Positions 3,001-9,000 of a DNA stretch of 64,000 nucleotides are shown here, one piece after another. The stretch is from Escherichia coli (GTDB lineage Bacteria > Pseudomonadota > Gammaproteobacteria > Enterobacterales > Enterobacteriaceae): the NCBI RefSeq assembly GCF_044324785.1, contig NZ_CP172127.1; one strand, given 5' to 3'. The position numbers were made by a program. The stretch's first letter is position 1. Each line of letters begins with the position of its first letter.

Positions 3001-6000
3001 CTCCCGAAAAACCGTATACCTCGACGGGCTGGCACAGCCACTACAGTAGAGGACGCTGAGGTGTGCGTATGATTGATATTCATGCCGAATTAAACGAATA
3101 CAAAAAAGATTTTATTTCTTTACGTGAATTTCTTGAGGTCGTGCTTAAGGTCGCTGGTGATGATTATGATGTTTCAGATCTCATAACTTGGATACTCAGG
3201 AGAATAAGCGGAGAACATATCCGCCTGTACACAGTAAATGAATTTAAGCTGTTGGAATCTTTTTGTAACCCGTATCGGGATGAATTTGATTATGATGTTC
3301 TTTATAGAAATCTGGATGCGGTTCGGAAACATGGTTGTTTACCTGGTGAGAGGGATGAAAATGGTTTTCTGGTGTCCGGTTATTGGGAAGATCCCGAATT
3401 TGAGAACATTGGATTTATAAGGGGTGAAATTTTCGCAATTTTTCCCGATGTCCTTGACGCGTTAACGAAGCTGGAAGGCGCTAACTCTTCTGAAAATGAC
3501 GAGGTACAAGGACGCGATATTGAAAAGAAAGAGTTGCGTACAGAGGATGATTTATTATCCCAAATCGCAATGCTGGAAAGAGAAAACGCAGAGTTAAGGG
3601 CAAGGATAGAGCAGTTAGAGCAAGAGCGCCCGATACACTTATATAAATACTGGGATAAAGACCCATTAGCTAAGGCTATTGAGATTAGAAACAGAGAGTG
3701 GGCCAATTACGATCCAGAAAATGATTTTGCCACCAGGGGAAATCAAGAAGCGATAACCAGGGAGCTTAAGCAGTGGGGGGCAAGTAATGCTCTTGCAACG
3801 CTCATAGAGAGGACTGCCTGCCCTATTAACCGAGACAACAGCCAAAAGAACGCAAAGCCGGATTAACGCACCATACCGCATACCCTGAGGGTGATTTACT
3901 GTTACCCTGAGGGTATTTTTTTATCTTCCCCGTCAATTTTACCATCACCCTTAGGGTAGATTTCCTCCCGATTACCATCACCCTTAGGGTTAATTTCCTT
4001 CCGGTAACCATTAGGCCTGAGGGTATGAAAATATTCGTTATTTCTGTGCCATGATTACCTCGTCAAATTGAGTAGACGTTATGAGGTAAATAGATGTCAA
4101 ATACGCTTATTCGTTTAACAGAAGTTCAGCGTAGAACTGGATATAGCAAGGCATGGATTTATCGCCTTATGGGGCAAGGTAAATTTCCTGCATCAGTTAA
4201 AATTGGCTCGCGAGCGATTGCTTTCGTTGAAAGTGAAATTGACGAATGGATCAATCAGCGTATTGCCGAATCACGCGGAACGGCTGCCTGATTAAATAGC
4301 TACGGGTTATTGCCCAAGCTATCCACTAGCAAATAAAAAGTAACTTAATTCGATAGCGGAGTTTTTATGAAACTGCGAAAAACGCCCGTACAGGGGCAGG
4401 GCTTTGTTCGGCCTGAAAACCAGAATCTGCAAAATTTCGGCGAAATTATCCCGGTTATTTCCGGCGTTATTGGCGGGCGTGAAGCCGCTGTTGTTAGCGC
4501 AAAAGCGTTACACAAAGCGTTGGGCGTGGGAAAAGACTTCTCTACATGGATCACTGATCGTATCTCTGAATATGACTTCACCATTGGGTACGATTACTCA
4601 GTCCATAAAACAATTTCCCCAAATTTGGGGAAAAGCCCGAATGGCGAGGCTTACAGCAAGATTAAGCACTCTGGCAGACCCGGTAAAGACTATCTGTTAA
4701 GTGTCGGAATGGCGAAAGAACTGGCAATGATCGAACGCACCGAACAGGGCCGCGCCGTTCGTCAGTACTTCATCAAATGCGAGGAGGAGCTACACAAAGT
4801 AGCGCCAGTGCGTTCCGCAGCGTTACGCCGTGAACTGAAAGCCCGTATCACCGTTGCCAGCTACTTTAAGCCGATGTGTGCCGCGCTGGAGGCGTACCGC
4901 GCTGAACTGGGTAAAAACACGCTCCAGCACCACTACACCACGGAAGCCAATATGCTGGCGCGTATCGTGCTGGGTGGCATGACTGCAAAACAGTGGGCGC
5001 AGGCGAACGGCATCACAGGCGAACCACGCGACCACATGAGCACGCTGCAGCTTGAGCACCTTTCTTACCTTGAGCAGAGCAATATCACGCTGATTGAGTT
5101 AGGCCAGGACTACCACCAGCGGAAAGCTGAATTAATTCGTCTTTCGCAACGCTGGTTAGCCCGCCGCATGGAGGTGAGCAGCCATGCGTAAACCTGTCTT
5201 TTATGCCGGGCGCACTGAAATCTCTGTCATTAAATTCGATGACATTCAGGTGCGCATAGTGAGTATCAACGGCGAGCCGTGGTTTGTTGGCGCTGATGTG
5301 TGTGCTGCGCTGGAAATCAGCAATGTTACTGATGCTGTTTCAGTTCTGGATAACGACGAGGTAATGACCCTAGCTTTAACCGAGGGGCATTCCGGTAAGC
5401 GTGGTGGTGCCAGAAGCTGGAATGTTGTCTCTGAATCAGGTTTCTACAAACTGATCGCCCGCAGCCGTAAAGCTTCCACACCTGGCACATTTGCGCACCG
5501 TTTCAGTAACTGGGTATTCCGCGAGGTTATTCCTTCAATCCGCAAAACGGGGAGTTATGGTGTTCCGTTTGCCATGCTGAATGATTTCAGTAAACGCCAG
5601 GCTGCATATCAACAGGAAGCCAGCAAACGCGGTTACAGGTTACAGCAATGCAAAGAGGCAAAAGATGCACTGGAACGAGAAGAGCGGGCGCTATGGCGTA
5701 AATATCAGCCTGATTTTCTGGAGGGTGAAAGCAATGTGTAACGATCCGAACGTTACAGAAAGAAAAAGCGCCCCGTTGCTGGATAACAGGCAAAACAAAG
5801 GCGACCGGGATAGGTCGCCAGTGGGAACAAAGGAAATCAAACGCATCGCCAACAATGCCAGATTTGCGGCTGGTGGGCAATGTGATCAGTGTGCTGGCTT
5901 GCTGGTGGGCTATTCCTGCTCTTTAGCATCGCCATACTGCGATGTTTTCCAGGTATGCGATCCCATTTTTGTGCGCCTGTACTCTTTTAAGAACTTCTCA

Positions 6001-9000
6001 AGGACAAACGCACATGGCGCAAATCTTTCCTGTTCTTGTTCGCTTACCGCATTTTTGCGTTGTTTTTTCCTGGATGAGGATAATTTCTTTAATGATTTGT
6101 CAGTCATCGTAGATACCTGTAACCCTGTGCGCCACAGTTCACCGCACCACGGCGCTGGTGATGGTTACTCCTGCTCTTTGGCCTTCCGGCGCTGTTCATA
6201 TTTTAATTTGCGTCCACAGGCATCTAAGACCCATGCGGAAAAATTAGCACTAGGATTAGTTAATTTTTCTTGTTCAACACTGGCATCAATCCCATCTATA
6301 AGCTCGTGCGGGAATCGAATATTTTTCTTTGCTGATTTGTTGTTTGTGTTTCCGCTAGACATTGGTACACCTCACTTAAATGGATTTGATGGGCGCACAC
6401 AATACAGCAAAAAAAGTGAGAAGTTAAGTATTGACATGTGCGCACACATGATTTTAATCTGTGCGCACAGTTTGGGTTGCATTGCTCAAATTAAGCAACG
6501 CCCCGCAGTGCTCGCAACACATGCAGGGCGTCTAACCACCAACGATAGAAAGCGTATCGAGGTAGCTATGTTAAATCATACCACACACCCGCAAGGGCGG
6601 GACTCGCACAACCTGAATAAATACATCTGGCGTTTTATCGCCCTGAGCACCGCACAACCACGCGTAATACACATCGAGGCCGCCAGCGAACAGGAAGCCC
6701 GTCAGCAATCCCCGGCTGGCTGCGTGATGGTATTTACTGCCCGCATCCGTCAGGGGGAATACTATGCGTGATGAACGATTTATTCTTCTGGAGCAAAAAT
6801 TCAGTGAAGCGCCAAAAAATGAAATTGATGCTCTTTTGCATATCGCGAATATGCTAAAAGTAGCAACGTTCCTTATAGTTTCGAATCTGGAGCATGAAAC
6901 GGCGTTAGATATACTGAACAGTGCTGTCGATTATTCTGAATATATTGCCGAGGATAAATACAGGCAATTACCAGATTTGTTAGCCCATAAATATAAAGAA
7001 GAACCTCACACCGGGAAATAAACATGAAGAAGATTAAATTTACTGGCTTAAATGCCAGCGGACAGACTCACCCGAAAATCAGGATCGGGGATATTTTCCG
7101 GGATAAATATGGTGACAGCGTGGTTATTAATTCCGTGTATGAACGGCACATTACATACCGCCGCGCAGGGTACGACTATGACTGTGTGATGCCCGTTCAT
7201 CAGTTCCGGCGTGATTTTTCACTGGTATGTGCAGTACCACGCAGTAAGCCCACCAGTAAAGAGAAAGCACGGGCAAATATTCAGGTAATAAAGAACATGA
7301 TTAACGCATTCAGGGGCAAGAAATGAAACGCGCACCGAATTTAAAGCACCAGCCGAAAGACAAAATGACGGAGGTGATTATCTTTGCGGGTAGTGATGCC
7401 TGGGCACATGCGAAAGAGTGGAGCGAATGGGCCGGAAAGCATATTGCGGCAGATGATACACATCCAGTTATTCTTGGACCGGAACAACTGGCGAGTCTGG
7501 CAGACACGCAAATCATCGACAAAGGGCGCTATTACGTGCGCGTTTATCGTGCTGGTGAAATATCAGAGCAGCACCTTACACAGATAGCGACACTGCTTGC
7601 AGTGGCGGGTGTGAAGGAGGCGCGTTGCTACCGCAGCTTTGTTGATCAGCAGCCGGAGGACTGGACACCGCGCATGGCTGGACTGAAGGATGATGCGGAA
7701 CGCGGTAACAGTCTGGTGATCAACCTTCCGGCGAAGACAAATTTCACCGGAAATTATGATGACGAATTAAAGCCTCGTGTTGAAAGTCGCGTCGATGGTG
7801 TTTTCTGGGTAACGCCCAAAGTGGACAAGCAGTCAGGCGAAATTATCCGGCCTGAGACGTGGTTATGTTCTCCGCTTGAACTACTGGGAACAGGAACAAT
7901 CGGCAAAGAGCATTACCGCGTGATGCGCTGGAAAAAACCAGCAAACCATGAGGTCATTACAATGGCGGTCCCGTGCGGAGGCATTGGTGACCGTGACGGC
8001 TGGCGGTTGCTGAAAGACCACGGCCTTAACGTGACGACCAACGGCAAATACAGGGCTATCCTGGCTGACTGGATGCAGTTAAGCGGAAACCATGAGGAAT
8101 GGCAGTTAAGCACAACAACGGGGTGGCATTTTGGTGCGTACATCATGCCGGATGGTTCGATCATCGGTGAATCAGAGAAACCCATCCTGTTTACCGGAAA
8201 AACTGCCGCTGTTAATGGCTATTCCGTGGCGGGAACAGCGGAGGGCTGGCGCGATACCGTGGCACGGCTGGCTGGTGGTAATCCGTCCATGATGCTGGGT
8301 GTGGCGGTATCGCTATCTGCACCATTAATCGGGCTGGTGGGTGCTGACGGCTTCGGGGTTCATCTTTTTGAGCAATCATCAGCAGGTAAAACCACCACAC
8401 AGAACATTGCATCAAGTTTATGGGGAGAGCCGGACGCGCAACGGCTGACCTGGTACGGAACGGCGTTAGGTATCGCCAACGAGGCCGAAGCACATAATGA
8501 CGGGCTGTTACCCCTGGATGAAATAGGCCAGGCCGGAAACGCACGGGAGGTGTCCACGTCAGCCTATACGCTGTTTAACGGTTCCGGGAAATTACAGGGG
8601 GCGAAGGACGGCGGCAACAGGGAGATAAAACACTGGCGCACGGTGGCAATCAGCACCGGAGAAATGGACGTTGAAACATTCCTCAAAACGGAAGGGATAA
8701 AAATTAAAGCGGGGCAGCTTGTCCGTCTGCTTAACGTACCGATGGAAAAGGCCTCGCAGTTTCACGAATACAGCACCGGAAAGGCGCACGCAGACGCGTT
8801 AAAAGATGCCTGGACAGAAAATCACGGGGCGGCAGGTCGTGAGTGGGTTAAATGGCTGGCAGGCCACCAGCAGGAGGCAAAGGACGCGGTAAGGGCATGT
8901 CGCGAGCGGTGGCGCAACCTGATACCGGAGAGCTACGGCGAGCAGGTTCACCGTGTGGGGGAAAGATTCGCCGTACTGGAGGCCGCGCTTGTGCTTTCCG

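Follow-up and report, generated by a model that had tools for sequence, protein, structure and literature searches.

Organization of the Control Region

The window analyzed here, a 64,000-nucleotide (nt) stretch of the Escherichia coli chromosome (contig NZ_CP172127.1), contained an island at tRNA-Gly that, according to its RefSeq annotation, resembled the phage-inducible chromosomal islands (PICIs) and phage P4. The island comprised genes for an integrase, a coiled-coil protein, an AlpA-like helix-turn-helix protein, AntA, and BroN, which were followed on the opposite strand by two small open reading frames (ORFs), ORF2 and ORF1. To the right of this region were an Icd-like gene, a hypothetical gene, and genes for DUF4222, a DUF927 primase, SSB, ProQ, and PerC. 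The queried stretch was 100% identical to several strains, including SCU-105, and 1,428–1,816 of 5,426 complete genomes contained related sequence. The region occupied by the two small ORFs and the Icd-like gene is probably the immunity and early-control switch of a PICI/P4-like satellite island (Table 1).

ORF1 and ORF2 each consisted of 65 codons, both ended in ...AKEQE, and both were located under a plus-strand frame that remained open for 396 codons; a preliminary description of this DNA had reported this arrangement, and its coordinates and protein ends were correct. Both small ORFs are already known as RefSeq genes, annotated as a hypothetical protein (ORF1) and a YlcI/YnfO family protein (ORF2), whereas just the final 67 codons of the long ORF were called, as a “host cell division inhibitor Icd-like protein.” Homologs of ORF1 and ORF2 recurred among the related loci that were compared with the window (designated L002, L047, and so on; L001 is the identical RefSeq record). 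Conservation in related elements and RefSeq annotation mark the small minus-strand ORFs as the conventional genes of the region.

Table 1. Features of the control region (positions in the 64,000-nt window).
Feature	Position	Strand	Description and basis
Intrinsic terminator of the leftward ORF2-ORF1 operon (predicted)	5790–5819	-	Stem GGCGACC/GGTCGCC (5800–5819), then UUUGUUUU; terminator scan
Eta-like “transit” ORF, 345 codons	5734–6771	+	From ATG 5734; open stop-to-stop from 5581 (396 codons)
Two Chi sequences (GCTGGTGG)	5869–5876, 5901–5908	+	32 nt apart, just downstream of ORF1
ORF1, 65-amino-acid (aa) basic protein, WP_024188802.1, phrog_21027	5910–6107	-	RefSeq; second gene of the leftward operon
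ORF2, 65 aa, YlcI/YnfO (DUF3950), WP_000094456.1	6165–6362	-	Family thresholds; predicted ribbon-helix-helix fold
O1, putative operator (TGGGCGCACA, 6390–6399)	6390–6404		Overlaps the P_L -10
P_L, putative leftward promoter	-35 6427–6422; -10 6404–6399	-	TTAACT, 17-nt spacer, TATTGT; sequence pattern
P_R, putative rightward promoter	6431–6470	+	TTGACA (6431–6436), 18-nt spacer, TAATCT (6455–6460); sequence pattern
O2, putative operator (TGTGCGCACA)	6437–6446	+	Within the P_R spacer
O3, putative operator (TGTGCGCACA)	6460–6469	+	At the P_R start site
Structured leader RNA (predicted)	6498–6567	+	Hairpin 1 (6498–6531), UCUAACCACCAAC, hairpin 2; RNAalifold
Icd-like gene, 67 aa, WP_024188801.1	6568–6771	+	Homolog of P4 Kil; in-frame 3′ part of the eta-like ORF; heads the replication operon

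ORF2, a YlcI/YnfO Protein With a Predicted Ribbon-Helix-Helix Fold

ORF2 is a member of the YlcI/YnfO family, which is named after genes of the E. coli K-12 prophages DLP12 and Qin and comprised more than 115 clusters across Enterobacterales. It scored above the curated cut-offs of both PF13132 (28.3 bits, cut-off 25) and NF041551 (59 bits, cut-off 30); ORF1 matched neither model at E ≤ 1. ORF2 contained all residues that were invariant in a 40-sequence YlcI alignment (R16, F17, P18, F41, S42, W44, V45, and C49) and carried the family motifs R-F-P-H-E and N-F-S-A-W-V...C. Substitutions between ORF2 homologs accumulated at the third codon position (1/1/17, 9/11/30, and 10/16/36 at the three positions in successive comparisons), and the most conserved position within YlcI was the second position of the minus frame and not of the plus frame; therefore, ORF2 is the frame under selection in this segment.

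The preliminary description had also pointed to a ribbon-helix-helix (RHH)-like pattern in ORF2, and structure prediction agreed with it. The model consisted of an extended N-terminus or β-strand followed by two helices (predicted local distance difference test score, pLDDT, 77), and its nearest structural matches were antitoxins such as TacA, MazE7, ParD, and VapB. The strand plus two helices and the small size are shared with the RHH repressors, which include Arc and Mnt of P22, CopG, omega, and the DNA-binding domains of antitoxins, and the “R-W/F-P-x-E” motif of the Arc-like strand is present in ORF2. RHH repressors bind short palindromes that overlap promoters and regulate their own synthesis; ORF2 is accompanied by palindromes in corresponding positions, to which it is predicted to bind. 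Sequence comparison linked ORF2 significantly to no RHH protein of known structure, and its dimerization and DNA binding are predictions. Searches of PDB sequences with the family profiles of ORF1 and ORF2 returned nothing meaningful, and an hhalign comparison of the YlcI profile with P22 Arc aligned the strand motif alone, at a probability of 5.5%, which counts as a lead rather than evidence. A literature search for YlcI, YnfO, and DUF3950 retrieved no functional study; the repressor role, RHH fold, and operators that we infer for this family are new.

Putative Divergent Promoters and Co-varying Operators

Two putative back-to-back promoters, P_L toward ORF2 and P_R toward the Icd-like gene, were recognized between these genes. 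They were associated with three palindromes of the GTGT-N-ACAC type (TGTGCGCACA), positioned at the P_L -10, in the spacer between the -35 and -10 of P_R, and at the P_R start site, and these were the sole matches within the 64 kb. The palindromic operators that had been noted beside the small regulators correspond to three clustered sites facing ORF2. The three-site layout recurred in approximately 20 loci from Escherichia, Rahnella, Serratia, Klebsiella, Pectobacterium, Pantoea, Xenorhabdus, Proteus, Arsenophonus, Gilliamella, and Orbus, with TTGACR-operator-(-10)-operator at the P_R position and a “(C)TATAC” -10 adjoining an operator at the P_L position.

The outer GTGT/ACAC bases were retained across the loci, whereas the center of the palindrome varied with the type of repressor. 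Repressors with KKN-IRFP were paired with TGTGCGCACA (E. coli, Rahnella, and Xenorhabdus), those with KKH-IRFP with GTGGGTnCACAC (Pantoea and Xenorhabdus), and the ARVP subtype of L002 with GTGTCCGACAC; in L047, a non-YlcI RHH protein in the repressor slot was paired with TACGTACGTA at the same positions. Because the operators are located beside the gene and co-vary with the repressor type, ORF2 presumably represses P_R and autoregulates P_L, and it would thereby act as the immunity repressor of the island. Furthermore, the mosaic boundary at which homology between the window and L002 breaks off is located within the 3′-terminal part of the repressor gene, as would be expected of an exchangeable immunity cassette.

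The replacement was seen in L047/L049 (positions 1749–1940, plus strand in the locus), where the non-YlcI RHH-like protein (...TFQIRISKELRQQVNEAATSDGLTLGNWFKELARAEL...) is encoded upstream of a distant ORF1 homolog. In both loci, TACGTACGTA palindromes occupied the O2 and O3 positions, and the -35 overlapped the first codons of the repressor gene.

An Open Plus-Strand Frame Antisense to the Repressor Operon

The long plus-strand ORF, hereafter eta-like, crosses the terminator, ORF1, ORF2, and both promoters in antisense orientation, and its final codons, in the same frame, are those of the Icd-like gene. Its ATG overlaps the BroN stop codon (ATGTGTAA) and is preceded by GGAGG 9 nt upstream. 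The start also overlapped or abutted an upstream stop elsewhere, as ATGA, GTGA, or TAATG; the ATGA type occurred in P4, L010, L013, and L021, and the GTGA type in L006.

The eta-like frame was open for 253–529 codons in every examined E. coli locus with an ORF1 homolog and in most YlcI loci of other genera, in genomes of 33–51% GC. In the 300 nt to the left of YlcI, which usually contained no other gene, it had no stop in 16 of 30 distinct loci, as compared with 1/30 for each of the other plus frames, which had a mean of 6–7 stops. On the promoter side, 200 nt to the right of YlcI, the frame was free of stops in 21/30 loci versus 3/30 and 0/30. Substitutions to the left of YlcI were distributed evenly over the codon positions (e.g., 40/35/35, 36/32/31, and 42/41/45), and indels were mostly multiples of three, including 6/6 and 8/8 gaps in two Xenorhabdus pairs (gap lengths from MAFFT alignments). 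The open frame across loci, the flat substitutions, and the frame-keeping indels together indicate that selection appears to act on the openness or translation of the long frame and not on its peptide.

The preliminary description had dismissed the long ORF as spurious, and its underlying view, that the ORF is a meaningless shadow of the codon composition of the minus-strand genes and that only the small genes matter, is the foremost alternative. The translation is rich in Cys, Ser, and Phe and has no Pfam match, RefSeq does not call the ORF, and no constraint was detected at the amino acid level. In addition, the third codon positions of the long ORF coincide with those of the minus-strand genes, and synonymous resampling left the frame open over ORF1 in 44% and over ORF2 in 81% of the trials (P = 0.44 and 0.81), such that openness there is mostly compositional. 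However, the frame also stays open over 170–600 nt without a minus-strand gene and over approximately 200 nt of promoter region, and the excess over the other frames (at most 3/30) included genomes of 33–38% GC. Indels preserve the frame, and, as in P4 eta, the start is coupled to an upstream gene and the end is an in-frame gene of the Kil family; these two features and the openness over flanking non-coding DNA are conserved across orders and together match the experimentally characterized nested eta/kil genes of P4. A shadow ORF is therefore considered unlikely, and the long ORF is probably not spurious.

The opposite alternative, in which the long ORF encodes an Eta/Ash-type regulator whose sequence matters and the small minus-strand ORFs are secondary, appears very unlikely. 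Gene calls and PHROGs include long “Ash” or “transcriptional repressor” forms (phrog_29966, 188 aa; PF10554 on the 204-aa product of L040), and the NCBI annotation pipeline (PGAP) aligned the plus-strand translation of L004 to a reference protein. In contrast, outside YlcI the substitutions showed no preference for a codon position, and within it the most conserved position was not that of the plus frame. The N-terminal 280 residues matched no family, and the plus frame that reads the conserved terminator hairpin differed from locus to locus.

In L037–L039, the long ORF (480–493 codons) passed through one Icd/Kil-like segment (…TQTHPKFIYTF…) and then another (…NNFIWRFIALSTAQPRV…) before reaching its stop. 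PGAP annotation of Icd-like genes varied in length (67 aa vs. 124 aa) and was inconsistent: in L002, a 124-aa “Icd-like” call at 3093–3464 started in the promoter region, and in L004, a pseudogene (“Icd-like, missing C-terminus,” 2322–2801) was placed antisense to the ORF1 homolog. The ORF1 homologs of L002 and L004 had no PGAP annotation.

Comparison With the P4 Eta/Kil Region and With PICIs

The NCBIfam model NF033153 (phage_ICD_like) matched residues 348–391 of the long ORF, i.e., the Icd-like part (E = 5e-18), and also matched P4 Kil (E = 1.6e-21); therefore, the Icd-like gene belongs to the same family as P4 Kil. Direct comparison of the two proteins by BLASTP was weak (E = 0.17), and a tblastn search of 50,697 phage records with the Icd-like protein returned one match, with P4 not found. 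P4 eta consists of 200 codons, its ATG overlaps the stop of ORF88 (an alpA homolog) as ATGA, and its final 65 codons are kil. In the P4 work on the eta/kil genes and P_LE/P_LL control (Forti et al. 1999, as summarized in PMC10111431), transcripts from a promoter inside eta ended early, translation of full-length eta occurred only from the late promoter upstream, and eta was coupled to the alpA homolog, with its translation preventing termination.

The window shares with P4 eta/kil a long ORF that starts on the stop of an upstream gene of the alpA operon, an internal early promoter (putatively P_R), and an in-frame end of approximately 65 aa of the Kil/Icd family that heads the primase operon. 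By analogy, translation of the long ORF would prevent Rho-type termination. The two systems differ in that P4 eta has about 200 codons and no opposite-strand gene, whereas here the frame extends over 300–500 codons and faces a full antisense operon (repressor, ORF1, and terminator), and no detectable sequence is shared outside the Kil part. P4 immunity is conferred by CI RNA and seqA, whereas here it would be conferred by a putative protein repressor with three operators. Rfam models for C4 (CI RNA; 74.9 bits) and isrK (seqA; 60.8 bits) matched P4 only, and neither these nor any other Rfam family was found at E ≤ 1 in this region of the window or in nine related repressor-bearing loci; therefore, a protein repressor would seem to occupy the place of the RNA immunity. 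Taken together, the window resembles the eta/kil control region of P4, with a protein repressor encoded on the antisense strand in place of RNA immunity.

A structured leader RNA was predicted between P_R and the start of the Icd-like gene, at the position that the CI RNA occupies in P4. RNAalifold on 15 loci (the window, L002, L005, L007, L009, L010, L013, L022, L025, L026, L028, L030, L032, L035, and L037) yielded 17 leader pairs, of which 10 had compensatory changes. The two hairpins were separated across the loci by UCUAACCAC(A)AAC, and hairpin 2 encloses or adjoins the Shine-Dalgarno sequence (GAGGT, 6559–6563) of the Icd-like gene. The leader matched no Rfam family at E ≤ 1.

The same set of genes is found in EcCIMP1-type PICIs, for which AlpA serves as the helper-induced master activator. 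The Gram-negative PICIs EcCICFT073 and EcCIMP1 share both the set and the order of genes (int, alpA, antirepressor/Bro, Ash/Icd-like, primase, and PerC), and the PICI literature examined described neither a protein repressor cassette nor the antisense arrangement.

A Proposed Model for the Immunity Switch

In a quiescent island, ORF2 dimers would bind O1–O3, which would shut off P_R and thus the Icd-like and replication genes, while P_L would be autoregulated. A helper phage would then trigger AlpA, and transcription of the upstream alpA-ant-bro genes would read into the switch region. Ribosomes coupled from BroN would translate the eta-like ORF across the antisense cassette and protect the transcript from premature Rho-type termination, as in P4 eta/kil, so that the replication operon would be expressed regardless of the repressor. 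The same read-through, which is convergent with and antisense to ORF2-ORF1, should silence both genes. The long-ORF peptide itself would be irrelevant, with openness alone selected.

Several points weigh against this model. In the window alone, the open frame is only moderately improbable (chance openness of the non-coding segments 0.16, 0.56, and 0.04; joint P ~1e-3), and where it covers ORF1 and ORF2, it follows mostly from the Lys/Glu-rich composition of the two proteins. The compared loci are homologous and not independent samples, and the gap-length evidence leans partly on MAFFT alignments of diverged DNA. Approximately 40% of the YlcI loci lack the long frame; the one such locus inspected (L017) was a decayed island with a truncated integrase. 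The frame of L047 ends 8 codons after the Icd start and is not nested in frame. The leader may be an unrecognized CI-like regulatory RNA that shares immunity with ORF2 or takes it over. In addition, the transcription, translation, DNA binding, and Rho dependence in the model are predictions from sequence.

On a wider scale, it is tentatively proposed, at somewhat less than even confidence, that a widespread class of satellites in Enterobacterales and Orbales has swapped the RNA immunity of P4 for an exchangeable RHH-repressor/operator cassette, antisense to an eta-like ORF that is coupled to the AlpA operon and kept only as an open, translated frame, i.e., a “transit lane” for ribosomes. If so, the same ~600 bp would form a bistable switch between leftward repressor expression and rightward, translation-protected read-through, and would constitute a natural long antisense gene overlap held by selection on both strands. 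The uncharacterized DUF3950/YlcI family would gain a testable function as RHH immunity repressors with identified operators, which would explain the silence of many PICI/P4-like islands. The principle of P4 eta/kil, translation for its own sake against termination, would extend from a single phage to elements of two orders of bacteria, and the comparisons would point to selection on openness alone. The region also provides a warning for annotation, as a long ORF that looks “implausible” and overlaps real genes can nonetheless have a function, and is relevant to work on phage satellites, overlapping genes, and annotation.

ORF1 and Its Relationship to ORF2

In all loci checked, ORF1 followed the stop codon of the repressor gene at a distance of 57–60 nt, and sequence signals place ORF2 and ORF1 in one predicted leftward transcript that would end at the intrinsic terminator. 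The terminator had a fold energy of -15.1 kcal/mol (z = -4.3) with no U-run on the plus strand, and its hairpin was conserved in L002, L003, and L042, with the plus ORF passing through it in another frame. The ORF1 family consisted of 44 clusters at 90% identity, all from Escherichia, and an exhaustive profile search of 1.84 billion representatives recovered 17 proteins, such that the family is almost confined to this genus. Fifteen of these 17 were 41–100 aa in length, and the other two were long repetitive proteins of 767 and 2,045 aa; the short relatives shared the core FxLExFLKxxxRTKMGxxTWK. The excess of third-position substitutions was weak (441/398/587), and the C-terminal third was frameshifted in several lineages. 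ORF1 matched no family, defense, or toxin model in Pfam, NCBIfam, or PADLOC, and its AlphaFold2 model was a single long helix (pLDDT 65). Within the repressor operon, ORF1 probably encodes a genuine small protein that is basic, helical, and fast-evolving.

ORF2 and ORF1 might alternatively form a type II toxin-antitoxin (TA) pair, in which an RHH antitoxin and a small toxin stabilize the island. The order of the genes, with the RHH gene first and a small gene downstream in one operon, the antitoxins among the nearest structural matches of ORF2, and the label “RelE” given to an ORF1 relative by one source are consistent with such a pair. However, ORF1 matched no toxin family in Pfam, NCBIfam, or PADLOC, and its predicted single helix of 59–66 aa is unlike the RelE and ParE folds. 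Its frameshifted C-terminal third also argues against a toxin, as do the operators, which occupy not only the promoter of the operon itself but also the divergent early promoter. Among the YlcI loci listed outside Escherichia, most had no ORF1 homolog downstream of YlcI, so co-occurrence was not consistent. A type II TA operon was therefore rejected as very improbable.

The preliminary description had regarded the two proteins as tandem paralogs, a duplicated regulator acting as a repressor and co-repressor or as a heterodimeric pair. The repressor part of this proposal is well supported by sequence for ORF2, whereas ORF1 is linked to a co-repressor or heterodimer role by adjacency alone, and ORF1 is absent from most YlcI loci outside Escherichia and also follows the non-YlcI RHH gene in L047. 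Paralogy itself did not hold: BLASTP produced no alignment of ORF1 with ORF2 at E ≤ 100, hhalign of the two family profiles gave a probability of 0.2%, and the predicted folds differ (β-α-α versus one long helix). The equal length is not a family trait, with relatives of 58–66 aa for ORF1 and 51–101 aa for ORF2. Ancient paralogs that have diverged beyond detection and act as a heterodimer are scarcely credible, since their equal length, adjacency, common orientation, and short co-linear motifs (KSxKK, EQE, and AKEQE) are set against these negative comparisons, the lack of the RFP β-strand motif in ORF1, and its pairing with an unrelated RHH protein in L047.

The common 3′ end of the two genes was a local DNA match of 29 columns with 24/27 identical positions and one 2-nt gap (GCTGGTG--GGCTATTCCTGCTCTTTAGC at 5901–5927 versus GCTGGTGATGGTTACTCCTGCTCTTTGGC at 6153–6182). 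It covered the last five codons, the stop, and approximately 12 nt of 3′ flank, and scored ~5 standard deviations above shuffled sequences, none of which (0/500) scored as high. The second Chi sequence falls within this repeat of about 29 nt. The match may reflect a short conversion tract near Chi, or may be partly convergence or chance, helped by the similar tails. A recent insertion copied from ORF2 was considered for the type-A tail of ORF1 (...GDAKEQE) and rejected, as distant ORF1 relatives also carry RTKMGxxTWK followed by a K/E/Q tail; type A is therefore the ancestral form, from which the short tails arose by frameshift.

The Chi pair was located at a mosaic boundary between island variants, and a Chi-like GCTGGTGA was present at the equivalent spot after ORF2. 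In L028 (Xenorhabdus vietnamensis; 2590–2931 in window orientation, the reverse complement of the stored locus), the ORF1 slot was occupied by a different gene of 113 aa with a CxC...CxH (SWIM-like) motif. This gene stands in the same antisense relation to the plus frame, which was open across it (529 codons).

Other Features of the Island

The island cargo included three large consecutive plus-strand ORFs at 11682–14213, 14213–16273, and 16252–19029 (843, 686, and 925 aa), of which the 843-aa and 686-aa ORFs were hypothetical in RefSeq. No defense model was matched by any of the three, or by ORF1 or ORF2, in a PADLOC scan; the three large ORFs are possibly uncharacterized cargo or a defense system. 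In the gene for the PerC-family regulator, at about 11025–11250 of the window (14326–14551 of L001), RefSeq annotated a frameshift in the identical record. Between the integrase and the alpA region, the Rfam int-alpA RNA motif (RF02996) was identified at 2985–3052 on the plus strand with 46.9 bits, above the gathering threshold, and this motif was present in L013 and L025 as well.

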